Below, one piece after another: positions 3 to 24,000 of a stretch of DNA of 64,000 nt. Below the pieces are notes generated by a model. That model did not search any database, was not told the origin of the DNA, and saw only the letters and a program-made list of their open reading frames with translations. The DNA comes from Klebsormidium nitens (taxonomy: Eukaryota > Plantae > Klebsormidiophyceae). The stretch is from NCBI GenBank assembly GCA_000708835.1, contig DF237433.1, forward strand, positions 1 to 64,000, given 5' to 3'. The translations under genes were made by a program, and so were the position numbers. Position 1 is the first letter of the stretch, and every line of letters begins with the position of its first letter.

Positions 3-2898
3 TGGCGCAAGGCTAGCCTGAGTTTCTTCCGACTGTGTGGACGATCCATCCTGGAGTGTTGCAGCATCTGCGGGCTGCATCCAAAGGTCAGTTCCCTTGC
101 TCAAGTGTCCAAGCTTTTGCTTGCTCAAAGGCATTGCTTGGTGCGGAGTTTTGATACTGAGCGCTGTACTCAACAGGAAGATGAGGGAGAGCCCATCGAG
201 AGTGCGCATCCTGGTCTTTCTCCACGTTAGATTTTGTGAATTTGAAGTCACGGACATCAAGAACTTTAAATCCTCTCGGTGGAGGACTGCAACCTCCTGC
301 AAGGCAGTCAAGGCTGCTCGAAATTGAGATTTTGTTGCACTCAACGCTCTTGCAGCGCACAGGTCCGATCCGCATTCTTGTTCTTGACAGGTACTTCTGT
401 GCGACGGCATCGCTGGTCTGGCTTGCGCCGACGGCGGGCGCCAGAAAGGAGGGTTGGCAGGCACCAGCGCGGCGGCTGTGCGCCCATTCACAGCGCCGAG
501 CCAGGATTCTGCTGGGGTCAACGTAGAGAAGACCATGGAGGCGGGCGTCAACTTCTGCGCTGCGTCTCTCGAGGGGCGGGGGATGAAGCGGCGTCTTGTG
601 ATCCAGCCTGAGCTGCGGACGCTGCTTGCGCGGTTCAGTGGACATCATCCAAAGGACCCCGACCTTGGGAAGCCCCTCGCTCAAAAGGAGTACGTGGAGT
701 TGCTTGTAAGCTATTAAGCGGCAAGCGGTCGCGTGATGGCGCATCAGTCAGAAGTTGCATGTTCTCCCTTGTGAAGAAGTCGGCGAGTTTTGACTAGGCT
801 AGCCCGGTGCATCACGCCCACCTTGCTCAACTTGCTCAGGAGCGGGCAGATTGCGGGGGTGGCGCGCATCTTGGATCAATCAAAACTGGGCTGGTCTTCA
901 AACATAGAAAGCTGACGTCTGAAGCTGACGTGGCACACCAGAGCAAGTTTTTGACTGAGATTGCGCTAGGTGCTAACGATTCATTGTGCTAATGCAGGTT
1001 GCGCTGGAGCGGGCTGACGTCGAAGTGGTGGCCGGCTTCGTGGCAGACCCAGCTGATGCTGATGCAGACCCCATTCTCCTTCACTGGAGGCGGCGGATCT
1101 TGACGGAGCAGGTTGGGCAGATCCGCTCAAAGAACGAAGCCGTGCTCGAGCTCCTTGATGGGATTGAGCGAGAGGCGATGCGTGAGAACTTGCGCTGGCC
1201 CCCGCGCTGCCCCGGCAAGTGGTCCGAGCTGCTCTATGGGCTGGGCACCCCTCTCTCCGTCTCGGACGATTCGAATCTCATTCAGCACGGACGGGCGCTG
1301 GCTGTCGTGCGAAAGCTCCTCCTCGGGGGCGCAGCAAACGGCGAAGACAAAGCCACCTTGGCTGAGCATGCGCCAGTCTTGCGGCGCCTGCTCGACCACT
1401 ACGGTGATGTCTACCCGGACTTCTTCATGCCCGCTCTGCACCACCTGTATCGGCTGACTTTGTTTGGCCGCGGAGCGTGCGGCCTGGGAATTGGGCGAGC
1501 GGGGTGGGCCCTCTCGGCCATCGAAGGGCTTGACTACTGCGTGAGGCTGGCCAGAGCGTTTCGAACGCAGCAAAACGTCCCAAACGCTGAGCAGCTAGAA
1601 GTGTTCCGCTTTTGGGAGGCACGTGCCAACGACCTGCTGCCCGGAATCGAAAGCCTAACCCCTCCAGCCCCACAGCAGTACCCTCTTTCCCAGGCGGAGC
1701 TCCAACTTCTGCGAGACAGGTTGGGGCTCGAGGCCGACGGCTCTGAACCTCACGCCCTTCCTTCCGACCACCCGTTCTGTAAAGAGCAACGCAAGCTGGG
1801 CTGCTATCCCCTGCCGGGCTGGGAGCAAAAGCAGCCTCTCCCCCAGTACAAGCCATTCGAGGACGAGCTTGGGAGGTCCGTTGATCGCCGAGAAGAACAT
1901 CGCTGCCGAAGCGGCCTCACGGTGGGCGAGTTCGATGCTGAGATTGCTGCTAAGAGCAGCGTGAAGTCTGCAAAGCGAATGCAGCAGCACACCAAGGGCG
2001 GTTTTGTGTTCTGCTGTCCCCACAGGGTCATTTACGGGTTCCATGTCATGTTGCGGGGCGAGTCCCCTCGAGACCCGTTCACCGTGCTCTACACGCGCGT
2101 CCGCCGACGGGACCTCCCTGACTTCCTTATCTATGACAACGCATGCAAGCTACAGGCGTATTGCATGAGACGCGAGCCGGCCTTCTTTGCTGATGTCCGC
2201 TTTCTGGTTGACAGGTGAGCGAAGTCTTGCGCTGCCTTTCCATCCTGATTTAAATGCAAGTGACTCGAAGGCAGGACGGTTGAGGTCCGACCGAATCATC
2301 AGGGCACCCAGGCACCAATTGCTTGCCACATGTGGCAGACTGCACAGGGGACGGCAGGTCGAAGGGCTGAGAACTTTTGGTTAGGAGGACCAGGGAAACA
2401 ATCTCGAAAGCAGCTTTGAATGGCAGCTGGCACTCAGCTTCATGATTTCGTTTCCCCTGCAGATTCCACTTCCAACGGACCGATGCTGAGGCGCATAAGT
2501 GTGGGCCGGGGTTCAATCCGGGTGAGTACTTGGACATGGAAGTCAGATCTCGCGAAATGAGTGGCTTGAGCAACTTGATTGTGTGCAGCATACCTTGATC
2601 AGGGCAAGCCTCATGCCTTCGATCCACTTGTCAACCTCGCTTATGTCTCCTTCCAACAGATTACTACGACGCCGTGCGCTGGGTCAACACGTCTGCCGTC
2701 GAGAGCTGCAACTCCTATCTTATCCGATTCAAAGTGTTAGCATGGTTCTCTAGTCTAGATACGTTTTTGGTCATTCTAGCTAACGTTGTCGGTGGGCGAA
2801 ACTCGAAGCTAAGGAGAGTCGATGACCCTAAGTCTCGGATAGCAGGAAGGGTAGACCGTTGGACCCCAGCCGTACAGGCAGCCCTCTTGAACAGTTGA
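3..2898 (+). mobile_element. KDZ (Kyakuja-Dileera-Zisupton)-type transposase, 5'-truncated by the window edge; exons <3-86, 391-705, 998-2214, 2463-2521, 2660-2898
   Basis: GT-AG joins keep one open frame: CCSICGLHPK|VLLCDGIAG...GGFVFCCPHRVIYGFHVMLRGESPRD...IYDNACKL...VDR|FH...HKC...VNTSAVESCNS. The CxxC-CDG, YDNAC, DRFH and NxSxxE motifs match KDZ/HMGXB3-like transposases. Confidence 0.85.
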
Positions 2899-3781: not shown

Positions 3782-6607
3782 CTAATCACAATCATCATAC
3801 TCGCAGCCGGATTTCAGTCGAACCCCTGAAAGGCCCTTGAATTGGCCTTGGGACTGTACCTGACTATCCGTGAATCGACCATCAAAAACCAAACGGTTAG
3901 CGCCTTCGGCAAACTCTAGAATACGTTTCTTAAGCCTCGTTGCCGACAACGAGCTGGTCAGATCCTCTTCCTTAAGCCAAGCCCGAAACGCTTCCCCAAG
4001 CCGTTCACCAACCGCTAAGTGCCAGGTCGGCTTTGTCCCTGGGTTGATGTCTTCGAATTCGAGGCAGTCTACGATCCACCGTCTTGCAATGTCGGAATCA
4101 TTGATATAGGCTTTGACAGCGTCCTCCATGACACGAGGACGGCGCATCAATGGGAGACTCCTTGGATTTGCACGCTTGAGCTCGTGATAACGTTTTGCTC
4201 CTTCTGTATACCATGACAGGCCTTCATCTCGACCCTGTTCACTCTTTAGATACGCTTCAAGTGTAGAATCCATGAGCTTCTGGCGTGGCTTGCTTGGATC
4301 AAGCTTTTCGGGAGGTAAGAATGTGACCAGCATCGGCAGAAGGGCCAAGCGTCGCGTAACACAATAGGTTACGTTTTGAAGAACGGGCCGGTAATTGGTA
4401 TTGAGGACGGTCTTAATACTGATTTTGAAAGTCTCCTGTTTGCTATGCAATCCGCGCCCTGTAGCCGTTCCCGATCCAGACCAGGCTTTTATCGCGGCTT
4501 CGTTCAAGACCGCCTTTTCGCCGGACTCATCCATCTCTCCAAGCCTCCCACCTCGAAGGGCCATTATATGGCTCGAAGCTGATCCAGCCGACCGCTTTCC
4601 CGCCTCGATGATGCAGTCCTCAGACATAAGAACAGCATAGCTTCCCAGAACCTCGAAGTTTGCTAGTTTTGTCAAAGACTTTCCGTTAGCTCCATTGCCT
4701 TGCTTGATCAAGAATAATTGCTCGCTCGTGTCTGCAGTCATACAATATCCGCAGAAAAGTTGATACCAATCGAGCACTTCTCTGTCGTCGTTGAAGCAAT
4801 CGAGCAGAAATTTCTCGAATCGGCTACCGCCTTTTGGCAAGCCGCGAAAAGCCGCCTTGGATGCACGTGAACACAACTGCGCGGGATGGAAAGCGAGCAA
4901 CTTTCCAGTTTCGGTATCAATGACGCCGTTGACGCATGCAAACAAGCACGGGTTGGCGATATCCATCAGCTCACTCAGGCTTTCAGGAGCTTGCAATGAA
5001 TTGATGACAAACTCGAGGCACACTCGAACCTCGGATCTCCGCGTCAAGTCGACTAGATCTTTCCTTTCCGGAAACGGATGCGTTTTGTTGACTATCCTCC
5101 ATGCTTCGTCACATATTTTTCTTTCTTCGTCGGATATCGGGTTGGATGCCCATTCTGGGAGTACCGAGTCAAGGGTCATTGGCTTGTTCATCTGTTTATA
5201 GATTGCTTGCTTGAAGGCGCTCGATCTTTGATTCGAATACCAGGTCAGGATGCGAGACATGTGGGTGCTGAAGACGCTTTGTACGTGGTATGCATTATCA
5301 ATTATCCAGCGGTGTCCGTTCCAATACTGAAAAGATTTTCCCTCAGCGATAATGCGTCCGTTAACGAGATACATAGCCGAGAATATTGCTGCCATTCCAC
5401 GATATCGCTGGGTCACATTACGCTTGATCAGATTGAGTTATGCTTCGAGCGCGGACTCTGACAACTTTCTCGAGTTGTTTGGAAACATACTTTTGTCGTG
5501 TATGGGATGCAATCTCAAAGGGTTGGCATCAAGCAAGGATATTGGAAGTCCGATGTTGCCAAGCTCCACAAGAGGTTTATCCGTACATTCGGAACCAAAG
5601 CATCGATAGAAGATGGTCCATCCGCGCTTCACAAGGGTCATATTATTACTACCATTGTGCCGATGCCCGTGTATGCAAGTTCGTGGGCCCTCACAGATAA
5701 ATGGATAGAGCATGCCATACGAACCTTGAAAGGACACATTTCCAGAATATCGCACATTTTCATCGAGGTTAGCGTCTCGCAACAATTTTATCATTGCATC
5801 AACGATTTTTGCATGCTCGACTGGTTGTGTCTCATGTGAGATATTACGATCCTCTTCTAGGTACATATTATTACCAACAATGCTTACTTTGCCAAGCTCC
5901 TCTGTTTGGTCTGATTCGGAACCACCTACCTCTAGTCCGTGGACTGGGTTGCAAGTCGACGCAAGACTTCCATTCTTCGATCTTCGTGCTGAATCGTTGA
6001 GGAACTTGATAACCCATGATGGAGCTGGTCTGATATTCGTTCTCAAGGGTTGCGTGCACCATGTGTATTTCAGCCCAACATCGTCAGAGCCCGGGGGAGC
6101 CAATGCTATCCCTCCTTCTCCGCGCCCATCAATACCGTAAAAGTGGCCTTTGTAATCAACTCCGGCAAAACATTTACCCGATTGAAGCCCTTCTTTCAGG
6201 GATCCGCCATAAGAGAAATAGTAATGAAAACCTCCGCTTGCAGTCGTTGCTCTCAACGTGTCCGGTTCCCCATGCTCCGCAACTAATCCCTTCCAAAGAG
6301 GCATGCCGGCTAAAAAATCATCATCGGGTTTGTCTCGATTATCAACGTCGAGTACGAAAATATCCGAGATGGCCCCGGTCTTGATGGCAACGAAGTTATA
6401 CTGTTTATCTTCGATAAATTCCTTGATTCGACTTTGCGCGGCTCTCCAATCGGATGGCGACCTAATGGCCCAATCGCCTTGGGAATGCGGCATCGTCCCC
6501 TTGATGCTCTTTGATCCGTCATCCGTTACTCCGACTTTTGCGGGTATCGCATACAGCCCTTGCTGTGCATATGCCTCAAAGACGTCAGCCATCGAGCTCG
6601 TCGCCAT
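3782..6607 (-). pseudogene. Intronless bifunctional primase-polymerase (PrimPol) + D5/SF3 helicase fusion (~940 codons) interrupted by one in-frame TAA at 5440-5438
   Basis: ORFs 5438-6727 and 3782-5416 are in the same frame, separated only by TAA plus 7 codons (SALEA*LNLIKRNVTQRY). PrimPol motifs AIKTG..IFVLDVD and TTASGGFHYYF; Zn-like motif CIHGHRH..SNN..YRC; D5 motifs FACVNGVIDTETG, Walker A QGNGANGKS, GEMDES, VLNTNYRP. Confidence 0.88.
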
Positions 6608-6750
6608 GCTTCTATCTGGTCCAAGGACCGGGAAGGTCCGACGCCCTCCTATGTTTTCTACCCCAGAAAATTTTGCTCGACCTCGAACGCGACACACGTT
6701 GGGGCGTAATGCATTTACATCCAACATCCACCGTTATATGTCTTTGGAAT

Positions 6751-7074
6751 CTAGTACGATTGGATCCACGAGTTCCCAATCTGTGCTTCGTGCAGCCGAT
6801 CCATCGTACGTTTGCTTAGTTTGCTTCCTTTTGCAATTCGTTCGAGAGCTTTTTTCAATAGGATTTCGTCCTTGTGTACCTGATAATAACTTTTGGAGTA
6901 CACTCGTTTCTTCGCCTGATGTTCATCCTTGAAAATCGATGCCTCCAAGCATGCAGCACACGCACTTGACCCGTGATTATGGTTTGTCGACTCCATAGCT
7001 CGGATGCAATGATGCCTCCTGATAGTCATTGAGTAGAAAATTTCTCTCCTATAGAACGCACACAATGTGTGCAA
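6751..7074 (-). CDS. Small basic hypothetical protein (virus-like)
   Basis: ORF tightly packed between the recombinase and the primase; contains KSYYQVHKDEILLKK. Start codon uncertain. Confidence 0.5.
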   Translation of the reverse strand: MHTLCAFYRREIFYSMTIRRHHCIRAMESTNHNHGSSACAACLEASIFKDEHQAKKRVYSKSYYQVHKDEILLKKALERIAKGSKLSKRTMDRLHEAQIGNSWIQSY

Positions 7075-7093
7075 GGTAAGAATCCGGCCCAGC

Positions 7094-8140
7094 TCATTCG
7101 TATCGTCTGTTGTAGAGTTCGTCTGCCGTCCTCATTGAATGACCCATGTATTGTGCCTTTGCTCTTACTTCACCGCGGGACATCAGCTTTGGACTGTGCT
7201 CGGTATGGGAGATATGTCGAAGAAGAGTACAACTGAGGTTTTTGCCAAAGTGCCTCTGGCCGAGGTCGTTTAGAACTACTGTGAAATTCGATATTGGCTC
7301 ATCAAGCCAAACCAGGTAATGCCTTTTGAGGATCAAGTGTTTTCTCGGGATCAGATTGAAAGAGCGGAGAATGACCATCACGAGGTCCTTCGGAATTTCA
7401 AGCCGTCTTACGCCATCCTTCTAAAGAGTCTTGTGTCTACCGATATGGAAAAAGCACCGCCTAGGATCGTCATTCAGCTCGACGACGTTAACATCACCAG
7501 GTTTTACCTCAACACGATCGTTCTTGGATTCCTTTATAAAGAAGACGCATTCGGCGTATTCATTTCTCAACGGTCCCAGCGGCATAGTGTATAGCGCCAA
7601 GATGAGATGATCCATCACGAGCTGCTTATCGTGGCGAGACAACCTTTCCTTTCGACAGAATTTTGGCACCACGCAATGAATAATCTGATCATCGAGTTCG
7701 GATCTCTTTTCCAGCAGCTCACTCCAGGGTATCCAGTTCTCCACCTCCTTTGGCGTTTTCCTCTGCATGGATCGATCGAGCTCTTCCTCGGTTGGCTTCA
7801 TTTTCTGCATATACTTCGAGTATGCTGCTTGCGCCTCTCCGGAAGCAAGAATAGTGAACGGAGCTGCGTAATTGCTCTTTGTGAGGGACTTGAGTAGTTT
7901 GCCATCACGCGATGTAAGACTCTCTATGGTCGCTATCACCTGCTCGTGGTCATCGATCCAATCGAGATCTTGCATGATGTCGGGTCCGAAATCTCCTGCT
8001 GCGTAAACGGTCTTGAGCTGTCTAATGTACACAGACACCGTAGAATCCGACCGGTTGTGGGGAGCTCCACGCAAAACCTTTTCGGGACCTTGGGCCTTTA
8101 GCTTTCTCCACACCTTAGCCTCGAAATTGGCATCCATCAT
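7094..8140 (-). pseudogene. Tyrosine recombinase/integrase-like gene (~350 codons) interrupted by one in-frame TAG at 7423-7421
   Basis: ORFs 7421-8146 and 7094-7381 are in frame (HKTL*KDGVRRLEIPKDL). Candidate catalytic residues appear in order: PLRNEY (R), HKT (K), LLRHI, MGHS (H), ELY (Y). Confidence 0.8.
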
Positions 8141-8208
8141 CCGCAATGAAGCGGCTTATTAATACTCATCCTCATAGATATCTTTTGTAAGATACACACC
8201 ATCCCGGG

Positions 8209-9048
8209 TCACAACCTGTTGGGATTGAAGTATTTTCCGTTGTAGTGAATCTTGCTCATAAAATTCGACCAATTACTTGGAGACATCACCGTTTGCGGCT
8301 GACTGATCGAGGTTAACAAGTGATCTCGCGGTATCAATTGGAGTGTTCGATGGATATATTTGCTGAGCATCTTTGACAAAGGGATTCGATCTCCGTCTTC
8401 GAAGACGAGTTCGTATGCTCCTTTCCGTCGTGAAGTTTGTAGCAGGTAGCTGGCACCCTTGAGACCCCGTTCCCCTTTAAGCACGATTGGAAGGTCGTGC
8501 ATTTTTATCCGGCGACGATGCTCGGGGTCCAGAAGCATGAACCATTCAAGGATCAGATGCCACATGACGACCTTCACTTCTTTTGAAGTCAGATCGCGTC
8601 CCAAATCTTCCAGGCTCAACTCTCTCACTTTGCGGGATAGCTTCTTTCCAAAGGCTTCGGTCTCTTTAACGGTCATCTCGGAGTCCTCGTTGCTTGTTGC
8701 CTCTTCCAATCTGCGTTGTGTAAACTCCTTGAGAGCCTTGTTCTCCTTCTTGAATGGTGCATAGTATGTTTGATAAGCATCTCCATACCCAAGCTTACGA
8801 CAGATCGTGAGGAATGGGGCTAGGCGAGTTCGTCGGCTACCAGGATTGTCGTAGCGCTCTAGTACACTTGCAACGATCTTCTGGGCCCTGCTCCTTATCC
8901 ACGAGGGATCCTCGGGCATCTTGTCTTCGAAACACATGTTATAGAGGAGCTGAATCCCCTTCAAATACTGCTCTGTGGAGCTCTCCGTTCGAATCCCATC
9001 AACCAAGATCCTCCTCAGACTATCCATACTTATCCGTACCTGACTCAT
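8209..9048 (-). CDS. Divergent paralogue of the adjacent tyrosine-recombinase-like gene, probably catalytically inactive or C-terminally truncated
   Basis: TESSTEQYLKGIQLLY..EDPSWI aligns by eye with SDSTVSVYIRQLKTVY..QDLDWI, and KVVMWHLIL with QLVMDHLIL. It ends at NPNRL*, where the paralogue has TLLRH. Confidence 0.65.
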   Translation of the reverse strand: MSQVRISMDSLRRILVDGIRTESSTEQYLKGIQLLYNMCFEDKMPEDPSWIRSRAQKIVASVLERYDNPGSRRTRLAPFLTICRKLGYGDAYQTYYAPFKKENKALKEFTQRRLEEATSNEDSEMTVKETEAFGKKLSRKVRELSLEDLGRDLTSKEVKVVMWHLILEWFMLLDPEHRRRIKMHDLPIVLKGERGLKGASYLLQTSRRKGAYELVFEDGDRIPLSKMLSKYIHRTLQLIPRDHLLTSISQPQTVMSPSNWSNFMSKIHYNGKYFNPNRL

Positions 9049-9355
9049 TGTAAGAAAATAAACTTCGAATGTCTTCACGTCTTGCAAGAGCTTATTTCAA
9101 CAAGCTCTGTCAGAATAAAGTGTCATCAAAAACTCTCTCAATCATTTATACTCTGAAAACTGCTAGCGGGGGGTCAAAAAATGTTGAGAAATCTCGAGTT
9201 TTGTCAAGACAATAACTACTTATTTCAATGGCACATGACACTTTTTTGAGGCCTATCCGCTTGCGCTTCATCCATGCTCCAAAAAAAAATGCATCAGGGG
9301 GCAGGTTTTCTTTTTTTCTATTCCTATCGTCATAAGTGCACTAGGCGGCCACGAT

Positions 9356-9865
9356 ATGGAATCCACAAAAAGAAGCTTTCGAGTCGTTGCTGCCTTCGAT
9401 TCAAAAGGCAACGACGCGCTCGCTCTGTTGAAAGATACAAGGCTTGAGATCGATGCTACGAAGGGCCGCGTGTCTCAAGCGGGGGCGCGTGCGGGGTCCC
9501 AGCTGTTTCGAACTCAAAAATGCCTGCAAGATAAAAAGGCTTCGCTACCACAGAGGGTGGTAGTAATGATCCAGGAGACCACAAGAGCTTCAGCAAAGAA
9601 GAAGTACGGTTACTCCGTCGAGATTGGCCCGGTCAAGAAAAGCAACCGTCCAACAGACATGCCATTCGAGGGTACCTTTCAAAGCACTCCCACGAAGATG
9701 GCAATCGAAGAAATCGAACGTACGAAGCCTTCTACAAAAAGTTCGAAGACGAAAGCCACTCAGACTCGCAAGCCGGGAAAGAAAAACGTAACGAAGACGC
9801 CCGCTGCAAAGAAAAAAGCCGAGTCGATCGATTCCAACTCTGATTCAGGTTCAGAATCGGATTGA
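9356..9865 (+). CDS. MC1-like (non-histone chromosomal) DNA-binding protein with a Lys-rich tail
   Basis: KRSFRVV...IQETTRASAKKKYGYSVEI resembles the MC1-like proteins of large DNA viruses (KRSFxVV...RETTRGSxKKxYxY); KKP/AAKKK-rich C-terminus. Confidence 0.65.
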   Translation: MESTKRSFRVVAAFDSKGNDALALLKDTRLEIDATKGRVSQAGARAGSQLFRTQKCLQDKKASLPQRVVVMIQETTRASAKKKYGYSVEIGPVKKSNRPTDMPFEGTFQSTPTKMAIEEIERTKPSTKSSKTKATQTRKPGKKNVTKTPAAKKKAESIDSNSDSGSESD

Positions 9866-11250
9866 CTGCAAAGAGCATGAAGATCATCTATCGTCCATTG
9901 AAACTACACATCCGCAACAACTTTTCTAGTCCAGAAAGATCTGCGATGGCCCCTGACAGTTTCATGTGGTCACCAATCGACAACATGTAGTCAGTGACTG
10001 ATATGTCAGGTAAAATGAGTTTGGTTAGAGGGGGGAACAACCACGTCCAAGATGCTTGATAACGGCGTCGAACGAGATTATACAGAAGTTATTTAAACTT
10101 AACAACTCCTTCTTCAATGAGAAGCTTTATCTGTTAAATCTAAAAACAATTCCATGTGGTCACCGACAGCTTCATGTGGTCACCGATCACCAACGTTATC
10201 ATGCAAGCCGTAGCCCTCGTTTGGTTCAGACTCGGATTGATTGCAAAGTGCATGAAGATCATCGATTGTCCGTCGAATCTATCACATCCGAAACAATATT
10301 CGTTCAAAAACAATTTGCAATGTCCCCTGACAATTTCATGTGGTCACCAATCTACAACATGTGGACAGTGACTGACAAGTCAGGCTAAAAAGACACTGGT
10401 CGGAGTGGAGAACAACCACGTCCAAGGTGCTCGATAACGGCGTTGAACGAGGGTTATACGAATTTTTTCAAACATAATAACTCGTTCTCCAATGAGAAGC
10501 TATATGTTTAAGATTTTGGAACAATCTCATGTGGTCACCGATCACCGACGTCACCAAACCAGCCGTAGCCTTCATTCAGGTTCAGAGTCGGATTGATTGC
10601 GAAGCGCATGAAGATTATCGATCGTCCGTTGAATCCACACATCCGCAACAATATTCTAGTCTAGAAACATTTTGCAATGTCCCCTGACAATTTCATGTGG
10701 TCACCAATCTACAACATGTGGTCCGACCACACTCACGGTCAGTGACTGCAATGACATGTTGAGCTAAAATTCTGGTCAGCGCGGCGAACAACCACGTCCA
10801 AGGCGCTTGATAACGGCGTCGAACGAGGATATACGGAAGTTTTTTAAACGTAAGAACTTGTTCTAAAAGCTATATGTGTTAGGTTCCGGAACAATTTCAT
10901 GTGGTTACCGACAGCTTCATGTGGTCACCACATTGCCGATGTCATCAGGCAGACCAGCCGTAGCCCTCATTCAGGTTCAGACCCGTGATTGATTGCAAAG
11001 CGCATGAAGATCATTGATCGCCCGTTGAATCCACACATCCGCAACAATTTTTCTAGTCCAGAAACATTCTGTAATGGCCCCTGGCAGTTGCATGTAGTCA
11101 CCCATGAACAACATGTGGTCACCAATCAACAACAAGTGGTCATTGACATGTCCGACTGGAATTCTGGTCAGAGCAAAATTCGACCAACGTCCAAGGATCT
11201 AGAACAACTTGTGTTGTCACCGAAATCCAACGTTCATGTGGTCGAAAGCA
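9840..11250. repeat. Diverged tandem array, ~4 units of ~350-400 bp, rich in catgtggtcacc motifs
   Basis: Anchor ggttcaga..cggattga.tgc at 9848, 10223, 10579, 10974; anchor gataacggcgt at about 10058, 10433, 10809; about a dozen (t)catgtggtcacc-like motifs. Confidence 0.9.
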
Positions 11251-11415
11251 ACGTGGTTTGGCAAATCAACGTGGTTTCTCACCCTATTGTAGCATGTGTC
11301 AGGTTTCACACTTGGATTGATTGCTAAGCACATGAAATGGATACTGACCTTGTAACAGGTCGCCTATCAGTCCTCCACAATTATGATACTTTTCTACCCC
11401 AGGACAATATAGATC

Positions 11416-11796
11416 ATGCAACAAAAACGATCGCCCGCTGTTCGATTTGTATACACAGATAGACGTCACAATATGCGTCATTTGTTGGATGAGGTCAAGT
11501 GTTATGACTTGGATTCAGAGCGTGTCGAAATGTGGATCGAACGAGGATTGTACATTCGATCGATTAAAAGTGCGGATCTAAGAAGGGGGGTGTTGCTGAT
11601 TCTAGCACGTGCTATGGAACCGGTGTCAAAGACAACCACTCTAGGTTCTCTGACGACTTTTCTTGACGCTGCGATAAGATCTCCATATAAAGAAGTCAGA
11701 TACTCGGCGCAAGACGTCAATCTGATCTTATACACAGCGGAGCAAGTGCTTGATAACGGCGTTGAACGAGGCTATACAGAAGTTATTGAAACGTGA
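11416..11796 (+). CDS. Hypothetical protein, convergent with primase-helicase 2
   Basis: 126-aa ORF ending 30 bp from the stop of the opposite-strand gene; its 3' end is part of the upstream repeat unit. Confidence 0.55.
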   Translation: MQQKRSPAVRFVYTDRRHNMRHLLDEVKCYDLDSERVEMWIERGLYIRSIKSADLRRGVLLILARAMEPVSKTTTLGSLTTFLDAAIRSPYKEVRYSAQDVNLILYTAEQVLDNGVERGYTEVIET

Positions 11797-11826
11797 CTCG
11801 TACTCCAATGAGAGACTATACATATG

Positions 11827-14800
11827 CTATCTCTCTACGATACTCTCTTTTGTTGGCGTATTGAGCTGGAATCCCCGATAACCCCGGACTGTGTGCCCCG
11901 GGTTGGCGAATCTTAGCTTGGATGGCTTGTCCGGGCCCTCCAGCCCCTTCTTCTTGCAAGGATCCGCGAACTTCCGATCATTGTGGATCTGTGGCACGTC
12001 GCTGTCGCCGAATCTCACGCCGTCGACCAACCTGTCCGGGTTGTTATATGCGTCCATGAGACTGCGTGTGGACTCGAAAGCCTTGATGTTCATTTTGCCT
12101 TCCTCCTGAAGGAAAGCCGCGAACGGATCGTTTTCCTGCTCCCAGGAGTGCATGTACGCCTTGCTGCTCTCCGGCATGTCAAGAAGCTTCTTCCCACTTG
12201 CGTACCAGTCCTTGGCACCTTGCACCAGAAATACCAATAGCTTCTCGGGCTCTGCCTTCAAGATGTCTTCCAATGCGAGGTCCCGGATTCCATGAAATGG
12301 GTTGTCCGGGTTGTAGCCCGGTTCGTCCGGATAGAAAAAGCGCATTGGAAATACAAGCGTCAAGAGGCGTCGCTTGAGCGCTATCGTCCAGGTCTTCACT
12401 CGAGGAGGGTAGTTGGAGCAGAGAATGTGCTGCAGATGGAACATATCGTGCATAAGCTCGTGAACGCGTTCTTGACACTCATGAAGAAGGCAGTTTTATA
12501 AGGTGGTGAGTAGGTGTCAACGTCCATGGACGGCACAGACGGCTAGGACAGCATAATTCGAAAGCCCTCGAAATCTGGTCTCGGCCCGAATATCTCCATC
12601 GAGGCCCATGGACAGCTGTGCTGTCCATCAAGACGAGGCTCCATCTACAAAATGCGCTTCATGGACGACACAGACGGCTAGGACAGCATAATTAAAAAGC
12701 CCTCGAAATCTAGTCCTGGCTCGAAGATCTGCATCGAGGCTCCTGGACAGCTGTGCTGTCCACCAAGATGAGTCTCCATCTACAAGATGCTCTTCACGGA
12801 CGGCACAGACGGCTAGGACAGCATAGTTGGGAAAAGCCTCCATATCTGGTCTCGGCCCCGAAGATCTGCATTGAGCTCCCTAGAGGACAGCTGTGCTGTC
12901 CATCAAGACGAGTCTCCATCTACCAATTGCTCTTCAAGGACGGCACAGACGGCGAGGACAGCATGGGCGGACCTTGCCGAGAATGCGAAGAGCCTTCAAC
13001 AACAGAGTTGTTCTTTGAAAGTTCTCATATATTAAAGAAAGCTTTCCGAGCACGATTACATCAGCTTTCCGCAGAAAGAAGATACGGCTCCGCCAGCATC
13101 AGATACCGGTGACTTACCAGCTGAGTTGTGGCAAATGTGACGTAATCCGAGTAGAGCGCTCTACTCGTGATAAAGGCCTCTCCGATCAACCGCTTCACGT
13201 TGGCCTCTGAAAACTCATCCGTATCTTCCGTCTCCGAGCATACAGCGAAACGAATGTTTCGTAAACCTGGAAAACAAACGTGTTCAAGACCTTCCGGATA
13301 TCGCACACACCAATAAGACATTCTTAGGCACGATTCGCTGGTAATCGATCAAACATTTATCTTGAGATGAGCTTCGTACAAAAACTAGCTCTATCACTGA
13401 GCGCTTGAAACAGAACGGCAACGAGTTGATATACAGTTGGGCATAATCTTTTTCAAGCGCAATAGCAATCGTCGTTACCGAAGCTTCGTATCCTAGCACA
13501 CATATTTCTGACCGTGAGTTGCTCACCTGCTTCCGCTGGATTTGCAGCACCTTTACCGAGCGGCCGTTGCCCCTTGGACGTCACAAGCATGTCCTTCGAG
13601 ACGTCCTTGTAGAACGGGCCGATCACTCGCTTCAGCATAGCCAACAAAAGGCTCTTTCCCGCTCCGCCCTCGCCGATCATCGTCAACATGACCTGGTTGG
13701 ACGTGTGCCCCGTGATGCCGTATCCAAGAATGCGCTGGAGATAAGCAAGCGCCTCCGAAGTGTGCGTGATTTGACGAAGAAACTCTCCCGTTCTGCCCAA
13801 CGGCGTAGCAAGCCCAGTCGACGGCCACCAGACGGGGAGCTTGAAAGACCACAAAAACTGCAAGACAATACAGAAAAGAACAATAACCAAACGCAATGCA
13901 GGACTTTGCAATTCTCTCAAGCATTTGCATCAACTATGCAATCCAGATGGGTCCGTTGGTAACGTAATTATGGTCATCATACAAAAAAACGCCACATGCT
14001 ATTCGAACTTGTGGCGGGGACATGAAAAGGAGCACATTTCAGAACGTTGGCAGTGTGCATGATTGCTGACAAAAAAGACACTATGAAATGCTTTGCTCAA
14101 GAAGAAGCGGCCCCCAAGTCAATAAAGTCCGGCCAATTCGAGTGGAGTTTCAAACAAAGTTAACAGCAGCCTCAAATACCCACCTTCGGATGGTGTGGCA
14201 CCAGGATACCGCTCTTAAGCAGTATGACTCCGTTTTGAAGAGGAAGCGCATCTCTGTTGGTATTCAACGACTCTTCAAATGCCGTCTCCAAGCAATACCC
14301 TTTCAGAGTTGTCATGATCTGGCTCATCTTGGCGTTGAAGTTGAAGTTCACGAGCTTCTCCTTCGTAGACTTTTTCTCCTCCTCCGCTTGCGAACTCTTG
14401 CCGTCGGCATCCGACGCAGCCTCCTTTTTCTTCTCCTTTTCTTTCTCCGTCTCCTTTTTATACGCCTTGCTAATCTTGTTGAGCTCTCCGCGGCAAATTT
14501 GGCTCGCAAGTCGTCCATTCACGTCCACCCCCCAAACCGATCCGTCATAATAAAACCACTTTTCGTTGCAGAAAACGAGCTTGAAACCCGTGTACGTTTG
14601 CAAGCGGTCGATGATCAATGCCCCTCCTTCATCACCTGGAAGAAATGTCTTCGACTTGTCATTGGCAAGCAATAGATTGGCGAGTGGCAGCCTCACGTCT
14701 GTATTCACGCGCGGCGAGACACTTTTCCTAGGAGGCGATTCGAGCACGACTAATTGCAAGTCATGCATTCGAGATTTTCGTTTCAAAAACAGTCCTTGAT

Positions 14801-16243
14801 CTCGAAGCTCTTCAATTCTTTCTTGAAAGGTTAACACAAGAGACGCATATTGGCTCAGGTCTGCATTATCGCGAAAGTTCTGCTTTCAAGAGGTTGACGT
14901 TGTAAGCAAACCTCGTGCACTTGTGACTGGGGGGCACCGAGGGGCGCACTGGCGGGGTCCCTCGAATTTGACTTCGTCCGCCAAATGGCCGAAGTCATGT
15001 TTTTCCAATTGGAAGTCCGTCCAACTTGGACAAACCTCTAGATCTTTTGACTTGATAGCAACTAGTCATAATGTTGTTTGAAGCACGGCTTACCCGCCGA
15101 AACCGAGAGGTTCTGTCGCAAAAACCAGAGGGGGAGCAGTTCTCGACTCTCGTACAATCGATCGCGATCGCTGTTCAGCGGAGAAGCGTCGGAATAAGCT
15201 GCGGCCACCGGGAAGCGAAGACGCCCGAGTTTTTTGTTTCGCTTGCTGTCGCCAGTCTTGCACCGTTGGCTGTGGCATACGTAGGTGATCTCTGTTCCTC
15301 TTCTGAGCAGACCAAAATTGTTGCTGCTGTGCGGCTGCGCCCCCTCCTCTGCATACGGACACACCCGCCCTCCCACATCATTTCGCCAGTGGTACATCAC
15401 GGCCCCAAAACCGGCAGCCGTGCTCGGCTCCGCCTTCGAGAAGACAGAGGAGTTGTCGCCGAAACTGCTGAGCATGCCTCGCATTGCCTTGACCACGTCT
15501 TGCTGCAGCTCAAGATCCATTAGGTCCGGCGCCTCAAATTCCGCATTGGCTCTCGCGCTAGGCACGGGCGCACTGGAAAGCTCGGGTGGCCCTTTCGAGC
15601 GTTGCCCAGAACGCCTCGACACCCGCTCGTTGAGAATCTCGATCAACCAATTCGGGAGAGGGGGCAAATCTTTTGCTGGGGGGAGCTCGCCTCCTCCAAC
15701 GACTAAATATCGTGCCGTCTCACCGAGTCGCTCATATGACGACGGGGGGCATGCGATCATGCCGTTTGAGCTAACACCCCTCATGTCGACTCCCACCTTC
15801 TTCAAAACCGCCTTTCTAGATTCCGGATCTCCGACTCTCAGCTCTAGCTTTGCAAAGTGGGTCGGTGTCTCCGCGCCCAGCCCCGACTCGAGACTTCTCT
15901 GATGAGAGAAGTAGATGTGCACTCCCCCGCTGCCCGTGCGCACCCGGGGAGCATCAAACGCGCCGTGCTCGGTTTCCCAGAATGCTAGCTGCTCCATGCC
16001 CCTGTCACCGACGTCAAAGTCGAGCACGACAATTCCGGACGCTGCCGTGTTGATCAGCAGCGTGTTGTCAGAGGGGTGGAAGTAGCGGTTGATCAGGCAA
16101 TTTGCTAAGGTAGATGCCGGCCAATCTCGTGGAGGAACCATGCATTTTTTTCCCTTCTTGGAGTTCCACTTGGTGTTTGCCGTGAATACCACATAGCCTT
16201 TTGCAACCAAGTCGCGAGCCGCAATCTCCTGCACAACAAACAC
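11827..16243 (-). CDS. PrimPol + D5/SF3 primase-helicase with 4 spliceosomal introns (~890 aa); exons ~16243-15094, 14635-14184, 13857-13527, 13266-13118, 12429-11827; true start uncertain
   Basis: Donors GTAAGC, GTGGGT, GTGAGC, GTAAGT and acceptors TTCCAG, TTGCAG, TTCCAG, CTGCAG all have matching phases. Joins read VSAG|DEGGAL, PHHPK|FLWSF, AEAG|LRNIRFAVCSET, TTQL|HILCSNYPP. Motifs VVLDFD, RTGSGGVHIYF, Walker A IGEGGAGKS. Confidence 0.88.
12520..12965 (-). repeat. ~130-bp tandem repeat (3-4 units) inside intron 4 of primase-helicase 2
   Basis: gacggcacagacggctaggacagcat at about 12530, 12665, 12798, 12939; it is the reverse complement of the dispersed family at 16.4-19.5 kb. Confidence 0.9.
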
Positions 16244-16394
16244 AGGATTGTAACCTTGTTGAAAGCCTACCGCACAAGTTCATCTGACTATGTGACCACG
16301 ACCGACGACTGCTAAGCCGAACCAAACGTACGGGTAAATCTCAAAGTGTTGTCCCAACCGTGGTCGGCGAAATCGAAATCGCGAGCTACTTTCT

Positions 16395-19300
16395 CAAACT
16401 GCTGTCCCAGCCGTCCAAGCCGTCCATGAAGACGAGTTCGTAGATGAGACTTCCTCTACATGGACAGCACTCCCGTCCTTGGTCGGCAAAACCGAAAAGC
16501 AAGCTGCTTTTTTAAAGTGCTGTCCCAGCCGTCCAAGCTGTCCAAGAAGACAGCTTTGTAACTGCGACTCCCTGTAGATGGACAACACTCCTGTCCGCGG
16601 ACGGCCTAGTCAACATCGTCAGCTATTCCGAAGTGCTGTCCATAAAGGGGAATTGAGTGAAGAGGGACGCTCCTTCAGCTGCACTCGAGTAAGTTCAACT
16701 CACCATTGCACTTGCTCCCATCACTCTTTCTTGGTCCGCGAGACGATGGTTCTGAGCGGAATCAACCGGCAGTGGACAATCGTCCAGCATCTCCTTGTCC
16801 GATGCCGTCTCCTCGTCGTCCGTTTCAGAAGATTCGTCGTCCGCACCTTCGCAATTATCACCGCACTCTGATGAAGCCGAGTCGGAACTGCCCGGCCCCT
16901 GCATCCAAATGGTAATATTGCTGAGGCAGCCTGTCACAAAAGGCCCAATGCTTTCCGGAGCCGAACAGGTAAACTGCAACAGGTTTTCGAGAAGGCATGC
17001 CATTACAGCAAGGTGGGTGTCGCATAAAATTTTCGCCGCGGCTGACGAATTTCCTTCCTTAAACGGGTTTAATGTGACATATGGAAGCACGGCCCTTGGG
17101 AGCAACTTGACTGGAGATGGGCAGATTGTGTTTGTTTACGACAGGCCTATCCAATCGGTGGAGGTTATCAAATTGGAGGGTCCAGACCAGCGCACCTGGG
17201 CCAAGGACGATGAAGACTTCCAAGATTCTAAAGGCTTGTCGCGTGCAGAACACAGCTACCCCTGAAGCCGCTCATTAGAAGATATCTTACACATCCTCCT
17301 TAGCTTCCAAAATTGTCTGAGACGGCGACGAATAGACACACGCAACGATGCATCCTTACGCTAGCATCCTCTGCCCCCATCACTTTGATATTGGCAGTCG
17401 AGTGTGCTCCTTCAACCCGACTTGCCGTCTGCTCGCTCGTCGCCCCTCCCTCATTCTCTGATTCGCCACTATGCTTGCGTTTTCGGCCCCGCGCCTGGCC
17501 CGCAACTTCCTGCATCAATCGCACACATCGTCACAAATCAGATCACACCGGATGATTAGCTTTTTCAAGGCCAATGACGGTGGCAAAGCCGAATCGAAAT
17601 TGTGAGCTATTTCCGAAGTGCTGTCCGAACCGTCCAAGCTGTCCATGAAGACAAATTCGTAGTTGAGAGTTCCTCTAGATGGACAGCAGTCCCGTCCGCA
17701 GGCCGGCGAGGCCGGAATCGATATTGTGAGCTCCTTCCAAAGTGCTGTCCGAACCGTCCATGGAGACGAAACTGTAGTAGATGGCGTCTCTCCATGGACA
17801 GCACTGCGGTCAGCGCTTGGTGGGTCTCTTTGGCGGCATGACTGTCGACAAGAAGAACTACAAGATTGGAAGATTCTGAAAGCGCTGTCCATGCTGTCCA
17901 TGCCGTCCATGGACACGAAAACTGTAGAAGATGACGCCTCTCCATGGACAACACTGCTGTCAGCGCTTGGCAACATGGATGCATTGATTTCAAACCAATC
18001 TGACCTGAGGCGCAGATCCCCCCACTCTAATTGAAAAAGTAAAGCTCATCTCAAAGCAAACGTTAAGAAGATTACCCACCATCTGATCTGCTCGAAGCTC
18101 TCTTCTCTGGTCCGCACGACGATGAGCATGGGCAGTTTCAACTGATGGGAGGCGGTTGTCACTGTTTCTAGCAGAAGACGCTGCTCGTTGCGACGAGGCT
18201 TTGGAGTCCTGCATGAAGGAAGTGCATGAAAGGTTGCCGCTTTTTGATTCCCAAAAGCTGGCACCAAAAAGTTGCAGGAATTGCCGGCCTGGATTACACA
18301 GCAGACCGCAAGAGCACGCTGCACCTTCTCGAGACTTCAAGCTATTCGTCGTAACTCGGGTATAGCTTTAAAATTCTGAACGTTGTGGCCAGTATCGTGT
18401 TGAAAGCGACTTTTTGCAGTGAACCCCACAAGGCTCACAAGGCAGACAACACCATCGTCCATCAAGACGGCCATTCTATTCAAAGAAACAGCCTCGGTGG
18501 ACTGCACGGACAGCCAAGACAACACTCTCGAAATCTCAAAGGATTTCAAACACTGTCAACGATCGTAGATTCTTAAGTCAGGACCGCGGAGCCGGACAGC
18601 ACTGCCGTCCATGGAGACAAAAGTTATTTTAGAAAGTGTCTCCATGGACACCGCGGACAGCGTGGACAAGACTTTGCAAATTTCACAGAAAGCCACAATC
18701 CACTGAGTGGAACGAGATTTTAGTAAAAGTAGCTCGCTGGAACTTGAATCACCCAGAAGTAGGGATGCTTGAGGCGCCGGGGCTTCAAACAATTTGTAGC
18801 CAGTATTCGAGGCAGGAAAAACTTTAAAGCAGTGCAATCACCTACAAAGAAGGGACCTGGCTGGGTGGCAAAGGGAGCTGTATTCTGCTTCACTGGGCCC
18901 CACATCGTGGACCAAGAAGCAAGCAGCACTTGGGGGACTGACCTTATCTACTGAACTCAAGACTCCATGACTGGCAGCGGTCTTCTCTAAAGTAGGCCCC
19001 CAGAAGATGAGTGTAGCAAAACACGTACCTGCGCAACGGTTGCATGAGAAGAATGCACCATAACCTGCCCAGGGTCTTTTTCACCACCTGTTCCCTGAAA
19101 CTTCTCCTTCGACATGACACAATTTGGGAGCGCCGCAGCCTCTGATGCAGGGTGGTCGCCATTTACTAAGGCTCCATCTCCACCATTCATGAGTCCACTC
19201 AAGCACAGGGTTCTTCTCAATGCTTTATCCGTTCCTCTAACAATGTTACAAATCAGACCCTTGAGGAATATCGCTCATGACGGAACTCTTCAATGCCTTC

Positions 19301-19545
19301 TCGCTTCTCATGCGAATGCAGACCAAAGATTGAAAACTTTGCCGCCCTAGACAGCTGGAAGACAAGGTCACAAGATTATCACTACGGCGACTAGGCCCTT
19401 GGTGGCTAGCCCAACTAAAGCAAGATATTCAACCACTTTTTTGGAGAGTTGCGGGAAGTGCTGTCCGAGCCGTCCAAGCCGTCTACCTTAGCGGAACTTG
19501 TAGATGGACTCGACACTCGATGGACACAGTGCTGTCTATGAAGAC
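16395..19545. repeat. Dispersed 70-90 bp semi-palindromic repeats (agtgctgtcc...ggacagcact)
   Basis: Copies at about 16400, 16515, 16630 (partial), 17615, 17740, 17880, 18595, 19458; inner inverted arms such as ccatggagacg...cgtctctccatgg. Confidence 0.85.
16795..17265 (+). CDS. Hypothetical protein between hairpin-repeat clusters
   Basis: 156-aa ORF with a Ser/acidic N-terminus; no motif recognised. Confidence 0.35.
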   Translation: MSDAVSSSSVSEDSSSAPSQLSPHSDEAESELPGPCIQMVILLRQPVTKGPMLSGAEQVNCNRFSRRHAITARWVSHKIFAAADEFPSLNGFNVTYGSTALGSNLTGDGQIVFVYDRPIQSVEVIKLEGPDQRTWAKDDEDFQDSKGLSRAEHSYP

Positions 19546-19989
19546 CTTGATCTGCGGGCTTGATATTCGGAATATTGAAGTTTTCAAGAACTCTGGGACT
19601 GTCGAGGCGCTCCTGTGGTTTTTGGATCTTAAGAAGTTGGAAATGAGGAAAGTTGGGAATGAGGATTTTGATTTGAAATTCTGGATTTTATAGGCTCGCA
19701 GACGGGCAGCTCCTGCGGTCCGGTCCGGTCTCCAGGCCACTCATGCGCGCACGTACGAGCCCCGAAAGGCCAGAATTTTCCCTCGGTCCGGTCCCGAGGC
19801 CACGTACAAGCCCCGAAAGGCAGGATTTGTATCGGACCGAAGGAGACACTGGGAAGGTGGCAAGAATGCTGAGTCGGGCCGAAATACGTACGCAGCTGCC
19901 ACGTACGGCACGGCGTCTGCTATTCGTCGGACCGTCCACCCCCAAGTTAGCGGGTCGGTTTGCCCATCCGGACCGTTTTTGGGGACCGA

Positions 19990-20095
19990 GGCGCGGTGCG
20001 GCACCGGGTCTCGCCGAAAAGGGGTGACACGTGTATGGTTGTCCATTTTATGCCGTTAACAGATTGTTATTTGCCCACGTGTCCCCCCTCTTCCA
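19990..20095. repeat. Left copy of an ~80-bp direct repeat (partner at ~25090-25175), with an internal inverted arm
   Basis: gcggcaccgggtctcgccgaaaaggggtgacacgtg...ttttatgccgttaacagattgtta; the arm cacgtgtccccc at ~20076 is inverted to ggggtgacacgtg. Confidence 0.75.
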
Positions 20096-21044: not shown

Positions 21045-24000
21045 TCAAAAGCTGACTTCAAGTGCAAACTGCTTAACCGCGTTCCTCACTGCCGCAATCC
21101 CAGTACACTGCTTGATTTCAGATCCCTGGAACTTCATGAAGGAGTCGGAGGGCAGGGTAAAGCAAAGCTCAACAGCCCCGGGCCCGTTCTGCTGGAGGAA
21201 CTCGATGGCCTTCTTCAACCCAGCGCCTTTCAGGTCGTGCCTCTTGCTAACCGTTATCTGGAACAAGACGTTCGGCTGCACTGCAGAATCCACAGACTCG
21301 TTTGTCCTGCTCCGGGGTCTCAAATACTGCCCGTTTTGCTTGCCCTGAATATCTTGCCAACTGTCAAAGATGAAGGGGGCTGCACCAGGAGGAGGGTTAA
21401 GAATCTTGATCGAGGTGGTCAACAACGGGTCGGACAGCTCCCTTATCCTAAATCGCCCGCCCTGGATTAGTCTGGCGTGGCAGAACCCCTCCCACAGGTT
21501 GCCCCTCAGAGCTCCGACGGAGCCCTCCCCTTCTGATGAGCTCAGGAACATTCTCAGGTTTTCCTTCTCATTCTTCCAAAGTTGATACGCAACCCTATGG
21601 GTCACGTAGACCGAAGCCATCTCCATCACGGTCGTCTCGAAGTCTTCCCGGACGCGAAGATGGAGCAATTTATGGCTCGCTTCATTGGGAGCCGCTTCTG
21701 ACCCGACTGACTCGACGAGAACCTTCAGAGACGTGCGGCAGATGGCCTGCTCGAGGAGAGCCTGAGCATCCGAGTCCACCTTCTCTAGAACAAACCGCGG
21801 TATGCCACCCCATCTGCAGGATCAGGAGGATCTTGCAAAGCATCAGCGACTTTTGGATAGCATTCAAAGGACCTGTCCATTATAGATCGCAAGAAATAAG
21901 AATAGCATTCGAAGGACCTGTGTATCATCGACCCCATGAGAGCATGCGATTCCTAGGAGTAAAAAGCAAAAGCTTTCCTGACATATTCTGATGTGAATGT
22001 TCCTCGATGGAGATATAAGCAACCTGCAAGTCCGTACCTGTCGTACCGGACCTTTGACTCGTCAGGATCGAGATCTGGGAAGACGCCTGCTTGACAACTC
22101 TCCAGTTCCTCCCACGTCCACACGTCCATGTAGCGCATCCGATAACCCCCCGTTTTCCAGGGCTCCTGCCAACAACAAGAAGGGCATATAAGCTTCCAAG
22201 ACAAACCACCAAGCAGATCGTCAGATCAAGCCTTGACGAGTCCAAGAACTTAAACGTACAAATCTTGAGAGGTTGCTGCTTAGGTGTCCACAAAATTCCA
22301 GCATGCCTCACCTTGTAAATTCGTGGATCCGGGGATGTAACCAGGACCATCTGTGCCCCGTCTGGCATGTCGCCAACGTCCATCGGGTTGAGACCGTCTA
22401 CCAGATACCTGCAATCAGCAGAAGCTTTTTAGATCGATTTTGTCCCAGTTGTGAAACCCCAGAAGCAACATTCTACCGGGCTCATACAGCAATTGCAGAG
22501 CAACAGATACAAACAAATTATGCTTCAACATGCGACCACATCGTCCAGAATCACACATACCTCACTTCGGGCCGGCTCAGCTGATCTGCAAGGGACTTCT
22601 CGTCCAGCAGAAAGCATCCGTCTTTCGTAAGCAGCGTCGGCCTTGAACAGAATCCCCGCTTGACAACCACGACAGGCGGTGGCGGGTCTTCAGTTGCCCA
22701 CTGGTACAGGAGCAGGTATCCAAATATAGATTTCCCTATTCCTGCAAGGAAACATACTCGGCTACACTTTGTGCAGTCTGGATGCGGCCTCAGAATCTCC
22801 AAAAGAGGCGAAAGTAAAGAGCTCACGGAACATAGCCCAAACCCCTTCTCAGAGACAAAAACATGTGCCTTTTTCTCACCTGGGTTGCCGATGATCGCCA
22901 CTGCCCCGTTCTTTTTCTTCCCCTTGCTATCTTCTTGCGCAAACAGCCTTGACACTTCCCTCTGTAAAGATGGATAGCAGGCTCGAAGGTACAACTGGCT
23001 GCCGAGCTTCGCTTTCCCTAGAAAGTTGGTCCCCTTAGCAAGTGTCAAGACCTTTCCATCATCGGACCAAGCGGCATGCGGCAGAGCCGCCCAGAAGTCC
23101 GACAATGCTTGCGGAGGCACTGAAACTGCACAGGAAAAAAGAAAAGTTCCTTCCAGTAAGCACGATTGTGCAGTCGAAGGGTCTTCAGACTTGCACCGTA
23201 AGGTGATCTCAAGCAACCTTACCAAGACCAGCAGACGCCTCTAGGCAAGGATTGCACAAGCAGGCTGACCCTCCCATTTTGTGTAGCAGCCCAGCTCAAC
23301 TTGAGGCGGCTGGATGACGGCCAACCTATGCGCAAACAGACGCTCTAGCCCAGCCAAGAATCCAATATCTGCAGGTACTCACTGTCTGCAGAGGTACTTG
23401 GCCCAGCGGTTGCTGCACAAGATCAACAGCATTTGTCAAGTACCATAGAAGAGGCTTCCGCAGATGCCAATCCAAGCGTTCCGCTTCCATCCAGCCGCAG
23501 CGGCCAAGCTGACAGTATCTTCCTGCCCTGTCCTTGCAATCAACGCTGTTGCACGATTCTGCACAACTTGCGGGCTCGTCAGCATCTGAGCATGCGCCTG
23601 ACCCAAGCACAGATAGTCATTATGAGCCTGACTTCCTGCTAGAAGCAGCAAGCTGATTGGTGCACTCGCACACGCCGGGCAATGTCTTGCAGCAAGCAGA
23701 GGTTGTAGTGCATGCTTCTGCCAGGCATCTTATGTGGCGGATGCTCAGATCAGGGAGAACGTACAATCATCCCAAAGAAAGAATGAAATACCTGGCCTGG
23801 CAGGTGAAATGCACTTGCACAGGTTTTATGTCAAGAAAATGTTGTTGTTGACAGATGAAAGCCTTCTGACTGGGTGTCTTTTGGGAGGACCATGCTCCCA
23901 TAAAAACCAACGAACCGGAGGGGTGGTGTACATCACTGCGTCTACCATGACCCAGAGAGCTCAGGCACTCTGCCCTATTGTAGGCATGCGCAACTTCAAT

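Follow-up and report, generated by a model that had tools for sequence, protein, structure and literature searches.

A spliced, transcribed primase-helicase gene of viral type and its multi-copy family in Klebsormidium nitens

The gene B locus

The DNA analysed here (the window) is a stretch of 64,000 nucleotides, positions 1 to 64,000 of contig DF237433.1 of the alga Klebsormidium nitens. It contains two genes encoding primase-helicase proteins: gene B, interrupted by eight introns, which is our main subject, and the intronless gene A, 5.1 kb away. Gene B has nine coding exons, which in the window form an open frame of 1101 amino acids beginning at the ATG at 19190. The 889-amino-acid core of its product contains a Prim-Pol domain, a Cys/His motif, a D5_N domain and an SF3 helicase, and is preceded by a low-complexity acidic N-terminal extension. 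The gene and its features, in the order of transcription, are as follows.

11827..19190, minus strand: gene B, nine coding exons
19685..19694, minus strand: TATA-like box (function inferred), upstream of the transcribed leader; RNA-like contigs extend to at least 19568
16899..19190, minus strand: exons 1-3 (19190-19029, 18208-18080, 17509-17360) and introns 1-3 (19028-18209, 18079-17510, 17359-16899; joints in RNA-like contigs); exon 3 has a basic RGRKRKH stretch
16704..16898, minus strand: exon 4, acidic
16229..16703, minus strand: intron 4, with two palindromic units inside
15094..16228, minus strand: exon 5, Prim-Pol (DxD, His) and Cys/His motif
14636..15093, minus strand: intron 5, 458 nt, GT-AG, phase 1, after residue 590
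14184..14635, minus strand: exon 6, D5_N
13858..14183, minus strand: intron 6, 326 nt, GT-AG, phase 0, after residue 741
13527..13857, minus strand: exon 7, Walker A
13267..13526, minus strand: intron 7, 260 nt, GT-AG, phase 1, after residue 851
13118..13266, minus strand: exon 8, Walker B region
12430..13117, minus strand: intron 8, 688 nt, GT-AG, phase 0, after residue 901, containing a 135-bp tandem array of the palindromic unit
12219..13117, minus strand: longer form of intron 8, 899 nt, with a second acceptor inside exon 9
11827..12429, minus strand: exon 9, motif C, arginine finger, C-terminal domain and stop
12522..19526, no strand assigned: palindromic unit of about 72 bp with inverted 9-bp ends, in introns 1, 2, 4 and 8 and the 5' leader only

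Matches above the Pfam cut-off to Prim-Pol (PF09250) and D5_N (PF08706) fall in the exons of gene B, as do PHROG primase matches. The DxD, His, Cys/His, Walker A, Walker B, motif C and arginine finger motifs are all intact and place gene B among the P4/D5-like primase-helicases, which bears out a preliminary description of the locus that had reported a Prim-Pol/D5 protein with intact motifs. The same description placed the start of the gene at 16243; this position falls inside intron 4 (16703-16229), and three further introns lie upstream of it. The N-terminus of the K. nitens gene product KFL_002790170 is 67% identical to exon 4, and the basic stretch in the N-terminal part of gene B could be a nuclear signal.

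Removal of introns 5 to 8 leaves a single stop-free frame of 889 amino acids ending at 11827. These are the four GT-AG introns of the preliminary description, starting with intron 5 as its first, and their coordinates were given correctly there. The joints of all four are present in each of six RNA-like runs (X1, X2, X3, X9, X11 and X12, from studies P1, P2, P3, P5 and P6), so that the search for spliced reads which it had suggested finds every junction in use. The joint of intron 4 is also present in six of the six. The RNA status of these runs is a program's guess, none being recorded as RNA, and is supported by the GT-AG joints. RNA-like contigs match exon 5 with no other letters, no letter differences from the window are listed for 11500-16898 in runs X1, X2, X9 and X12, and the contigs that retain introns match the introns of the window exactly. 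In the DNA-like run X19 all 30 bins are covered and none of the joints of introns 5 to 8 occurs; the run behaves as the DNA of a near-identical strain.

The joint to the second acceptor of intron 8, at 12219, was found in three of the five studies (X1, X9 and X11) and is not listed for X2, X3 and X12. Its use shifts the frame, giving a predicted product of 943 amino acids without motif C, the arginine finger and the C-terminal domain, which is predicted to be helicase-dead. Over exons 1 to 3, RNA-like contigs show a few percent divergence from the window as well as 1-nt deletions, after which the shifted frames close; translation may therefore begin near exon 4 or 5. A second transcribed copy has kept introns homologous to introns 3 and 4 of gene B, and its 5' part is closer to the window than its exon 5, a mosaic pattern. 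Sums of contig depth hint that both transcribed copies carry variant 5' exons; depth is a poor measure and is not relied on here. Upstream of the gene, an 89-bp segment at 19993-20073 recurs at 25089-25176 (79% alike), about 400-550 bp upstream of both the gene B leader and a multi-exon gene at 21045-24640, and is possibly a shared promoter module.

All matches to the 72-bp palindromic unit with E<0.1 in the 64-kb window fall in 12522-19526, as do all 18 matches to its pattern, for which shuffled sequences give an expectation of 0.33. Loose ends in the runs indicate that related sequence is present elsewhere in the genome, and no match to the pattern was found in the viral contigs scanned. As the unit lies inside introns, it did not create them. 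An introner-type origin, for which introns should be alike over their full length with repeat ends at the splice sites, was rejected: likeness among the eight introns is limited to the internal 72-bp units, and introns 3, 5, 6 and 7 match nothing. The unit may be a cis site of the gene B family or a small host repeat. One X19 contig joins the gene B 3' untranslated region (11825) to an opposite-strand palindromic unit (17593), and could stem from a repeat artefact or from a deleted derivative located elsewhere.

The Klebsormidium family and the age of its introns

Thirteen other annotated K. nitens genes are related to gene B, at 30-86% identity where measured, giving a family of at least 14 copies; all the named close homologues of gene B are genes of this alga. 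None of the 13 reaches 90% over exon 5, so the window's own gene is not represented among them. Six of the 13 lie on scaffolds shorter than 19 kb. Together with relatives from JGI and Logan, the family forms one clade on a long stem (support 100/99, and 100 in a second tree), within which the terminal branch of gene B is short (0.04-0.10). The nearest homologues outside the family (P0012, P0016, P0018 and P0022) are single open frames with the same domain order and 25-33% identity. Metagenome scans found no locus, and single-protein scans of viral contigs gave no match. The gene number is 030 or lower in 11 of the 13 family KFL identifiers, five of these being on scaffolds longer than 30 kb; such numbers suggest scaffold ends, provided that the identifier format is as we assume.

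Compared with solved structures, the family profile matches poxvirus D5/E5 and African swine fever virus (ASFV) C962R best (E 9e-36). The structural model of P0186, an 84%-identical paralogue, has a predicted local distance difference test score of 87, and its fold matches the same two proteins with E values down to 2e-25.

Primase and helicase motifs occur together in only four of the 13 gene models. Such partial models might reflect a relic, in which an old viral gene was intronised, duplicated in repeat-rich regions and is now transcribed without function; the intron-retaining contigs, the frameshifting isoform and the 5' exon deletions in the RNA-type copy would fit the same idea. However, the catalytic motifs are kept across family members that are 30-45% identical, and gene B has a 3.3-kb stop-free frame whereas two genes of the neighbouring element contain stops. 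We consider a relic unlikely.

Intron sites in the other copies were read indirectly, from RNA-like contigs and from protein break points, since proteins called directly from DNA lose their match where an intron starts. Thirty-six fragments were tested, 29 of which have an unaligned tail; 15 of these 29 stop no more than 3 residues from an intron site and 20 of 29 no more than 10, where chance would account for about 3% per end (members of one cluster are not independent of each other, and the count takes in four short fragments that align poorly). Site 590 is common to P0006, P0013, P0014, P0020, P0038, P0111 and P0195, site 741 to P0007, P0020 and P0115, site 851 to P0039, P0107, P0115 and P0206-P0208, and site 901 to P0042, P0207, P0196 and P0199, from subfamilies with 37% and with about 45-60% identity. 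Gene B has sites 741 and 851 in common with the P0007 and P0038/P0115 subfamilies. Apparent spans of site 901 by P0196 and P0199, and of site 851 by P0042 and P0207, were rejected as alignment overruns.

In the P0007 subfamily the reading frame continues across site 590 and begins at a Met of its own, a pattern which implies that sites 212 and 590 vary within the family. A comparison of intron positions among copies, as the preliminary description had suggested, therefore finds sites shared across the family, with 590 absent from one subfamily. As the basal forks of the family tree are without resolution, the introns are given no order of gain or loss.

Relatives of only 37-48% identity are broken at identical codons, which makes the introns old and inherited. 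The preliminary description had proposed that this copy gained its introns after nuclear integration; a nuclear gain remains likely, but not one made by the gene B copy. It had also named free-virus homologues with introns at the same positions as the finding that would speak against it. Among 155 IMG/VR loci, 126 are stop-free across site 741, 151 across site 851, 151 across site 901 and 3 across site 590, which few alignments reach. As the outside homologues and most of these loci are stop-free across three of the sites, intron gain in a eukaryotic nucleus is likely. The introns are likely nuclear gains made in the family's ancestor, and the core introns were likely gained before the family split.

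It is alternatively conceivable that the introns arose in a nucleus-using virus lineage infecting Klebsormidium, with each subfamily a separate viral insertion. One study describes many distinct giant-virus inserts in K. nitens (PMC5294986), another states that the timing of introns relative to insertion is unclear in endogenous giant viruses (PMC9693826), and intron-bearing relatives of 45% identity sit on JGI and Logan contigs. Against this, the giant-virus hallmarks (capsid, ATPase, PolB and VLTF3) have no Pfam match among 52 open reading frames (ORFs) of the window, a set that covers shorter or spliced ORFs incompletely, and no IMG/VR contig has the P0001 patterns. The best of the 155 viral loci, L076 from a giant-virus metagenome-assembled genome, is uninterrupted and 27% identical over residues 604-1017 only, the helicase half. 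A viral birth of the introns is unlikely. Two related candidates were rejected: gene B as an orthologue of the giant-virus core D5, since the L076 alignment excludes the primase domain, and gene B as part of an endogenous giant virus, since no hallmark genes lie nearby among the 52 ORFs.

Element A and the remainder of the window

The region beyond the 3' end of gene B contains the following features.

977..2895, plus strand: KDZ-transposase-like multi-exon gene (Pfam KDZ E 0.013, 15.7 bits, below the cut-off of 26.6)
3782..6607 (also given as 6733-3782), minus strand: gene A, intronless Prim-Pol/D5_N/SF3 gene of a separate family, with an in-frame stop at 5440-5438
7094..8155, minus strand: tyrosine-recombinase-like gene, with an in-frame stop at 7423-7421
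8209..9096, minus strand: ORF weakly like the N-terminal half of the recombinase (pairwise E 3e-4)
9843..11121, no strand assigned: 375-bp tandem array, partly like the gene B 3' untranslated region (11743-11820), between convergent genes

Gene A had been described as an intronless, decayed paralogue of gene B about 5 kb away. The distance, the lack of introns and the single in-frame stop stand, but 'paralogue' overstates the relationship, as the two proteins are 25% identical. Proteins 59-71% identical to gene A, some of them full-length single frames, make up its own family. A and B fall in separate, fully supported clades, and their joint monophyly is rejected by the approximately unbiased test (p=0.022; 40 of 163 rows, LG+G4, quick tree); the larger tree was built on all 163 rows, after the exclusion of 42 proteins in which the helicase region was lacking or too short. 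Hence the side-by-side view of intron gain which the preliminary description saw in the pair does not hold: a separate element carrying a separate family provides no before and after. K. nitens has a third lineage of Prim-Pol/D5_N proteins, distinct from both and represented by P0034 (GAQ92546.1).

The recombinase-like gene has Atlas leads of 0.94-0.97 to viral clusters and to a cluster with Phage_integrase on 22% of its members, and carries what we take to be a recombinase catalytic pattern. The gene KFL_011090010 starts with a 77% match to 7330-7241, so the pairing of a recombinase-like gene with an A-family gene recurs at a second K. nitens locus. Element A thus has a primase-helicase and a tyrosine recombinase (the latter by Atlas lead and presumed motif), as does a Polinton-like virus. 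No major or minor capsid gene, packaging ATPase or terminal inverted repeats were found in 1-12 kb with libraries that cover such capsids poorly. Element A is a decayed tyrosine-recombinase-like element in its own right, separate from gene B. The interval 3300-11504 has no cover in three RNA-like runs and is covered in X19; this hints at most weakly at a silent element A, and the interval served mainly as a control stretch without transcripts. One X19 record runs across the gene A stop with four differences.

A 147-bp direct repeat (3267-3412 and 3493-3634, 76% alike), lying between gene A and the KDZ-like gene, is a possible element end. Beside the recombinase-like genes, an ORF at 9356-9865 (plus strand) encodes a basic tail; a likeness to giant-virus MC1-like DNA-binding proteins found no confirmation in searches of Pfam, PHROGs and PDB sequences or in a fold search.

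Elsewhere in the window, the multi-exon genes at 21045-24640 (minus strand) and 57614-60512 (plus strand) have a weak AAA Pfam match only; they resemble Crinkler-type P-loop/nuclease proteins, a label for which Pfam gave no support. A coiled-coil gene at 40185-44313 forms an inverted duplication with arms 75-88% alike, and a membrane-protein-like gene without Pfam match is present in three tandem copies at 46418-53228 (minus strand). A leucine-rich-repeat gene at 26918-28746 (plus strand) is split across two frames, and a perfect 36-bp inverted repeat with a 15-nt spacer lies at 31240-31326.

Proposed role and comparison with known systems

We propose, with a probability of about 0.5, that gene B belongs to a nuclear-adapted replicase family that spreads with mobile DNA. 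The number of copies, the deep subfamilies, the mosaic second copy and the mobile neighbours lean towards this proposal. Also in its favour are the splicing seen in all six RNA-like runs, the intact motifs, the viral-type fold of the paralogue, the single clade with its long stem, the coincidence of fragment ends with intron sites, the short scaffolds and incomplete gene models among the copies, and the confinement of the palindromic unit to gene B within the window. The family likely descends from one intronless replicase of virus or plasmid type, and the likely role of the gene B protein is to replicate mobile DNA in the algal nucleus. By analogy with pRN1 ORF904, whose type of chemistry we infer gene B to share, and with D5-type proteins, six subunits would form a ring, the C-terminal end would bind an origin, the SF3 motor would move along or open the DNA, and the Prim-Pol domain would lay primers and perhaps extend them. 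Since introns are retained in each copy, spread would proceed via DNA and not RNA. As gene B has no integrase of its own, its movement would depend on transposase or recombinase systems nearby or on segmental copying; gene B is unlikely to be an autonomous DNA transposon or integrating element itself, there being no paired ends around it and the recombinase-like genes going with gene A.

More speculatively, the 72-bp palindromes might be cis sites for the gene B protein and the frameshifted isoform a motor-dead regulator. In its fullest form, this idea describes a family of capsid-less, self-copying nuclear elements with a spliceosome-dependent Prim-Pol/SF3 replicase, origins formed by the 72-bp palindromes that its introns contain, and a motor-dead subunit, produced when the last intron is alternatively spliced, that limits copying. 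We regard that complete scheme as unlikely.

Several points weigh against a mobile-DNA replicase. No terminal repeats, paired ends or integrase are tied to gene B in the window, and an ordinary host gene would look no different in its transcription across all five studies, its eight host-style introns and its TATA-like box. The viral origin is not pinned, the nearest homologues outside the family being about 30% identical. The 1101-amino-acid form may not be made; the 5' half of the window may represent another copy or an assembly mosaic and not the exact transcribed locus; and the broken models of family genes may be annotation errors.

Some of the same observations would suit host domestication, in which an old capture now serves, for instance, to reprime or repair DNA or to ward off DNA viruses, the extra copies being ordinary duplicates. 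Gene B is transcribed and spliced in all five studies, its frame is intact over nine exons, its terminal branch is short, no integrase is attached to it, and the X19 differences in exon 5 are synonymous in four of four cases among the rows listed (40 of 465). Purifying selection is, however, equally expected of a selfish replicase, and neither the high copy number with its deep subfamilies and many partial models nor the mobile-element-like neighbours are easily accommodated. Among the matches looked up, moreover, no named homologue exceeds 34% identity outside K. nitens. We regard domestication as less likely than a mobile-DNA replicase but as the strongest rival to it.

In domain order (Prim-Pol, SF3 helicase, C-terminal domain) and in size, gene B resembles pRN1 ORF904, which acts as a hexamer on DNA with primase, polymerase and translocase activity (PMC2777425). 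ORF904 is an archaeal plasmid gene without introns, likened to gene B here by domain order and size. Gene B differs in its D5_N domain and Cys/His motif and in being nuclear, spliced and multi-copy. Poxvirus D5/E5 and ASFV C962R, the best solved structures by both profile and fold, match only the D5_N and helicase half (profile 335-779) at 14-17% identity, whereas the N-terminus of gene B is a Pfam Prim-Pol domain.

Intron-bearing genes were reportedly described in endogenous giant viruses of green algae by Moniruzzaman in Nature in 2020. A further study likewise records introns in such genes (PMC9693826), and gene B resembles them as a viral-type gene with spliceosomal introns in an algal genome. 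It differs in that no giant-virus context was found, splicing is shown and intron positions are shared across a deep multi-copy family. Viral inserts of Amoebidium contain multi-exon, transcribed KDM4-like genes, proposed to be domesticated (PMC11244446); these are host-derived with introns retained, whereas gene B is a viral-type replicase that apparently gained them.

Element A recalls other systems. Its intronless primase-helicase, beside recombinase-like genes and a KDZ-like transposase with a match below the Pfam cut-off, fits descriptions of Polinton-like virus inserts with primase-helicase and tyrosine recombinase (PMC4642659, PMC10120064, PMC12220804) and of the Plavaka giant repeats of Amoebidium (PMC11244446). 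It differs in that neither capsid nor packaging genes were found, nor any terminal inverted repeats. Polinton-like inserts are stated in one report to be without introns (PMC10120064), unlike gene B.

Intronised viral genes in algae and giant-virus inserts in K. nitens are thus known already. In the text form of Table 1 of PMC5294986 the D5 cell for K. flaccidum is blank, possibly through a lost symbol. In the open literature, a scope that leaves aside subscription papers and the D5-tree supplement of PMC5294986, no description of a Klebsormidium primase-helicase family that is both spliced and multi-copy came to light. To put intron gain and loss in order, the system to use is the gene B family and not the local A/B pair, and the family raises the question of which DNA a nuclear primase-polymerase-helicase copies in Klebsormidium. 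Algal viral inserts are mostly described as intron-poor and silent; gene B, by comparison, is a spliced, transcribed and multi-copy replicase of viral type that a close relative of land plants has kept, and some of its intron sites are common to several subfamilies while others are absent from some.

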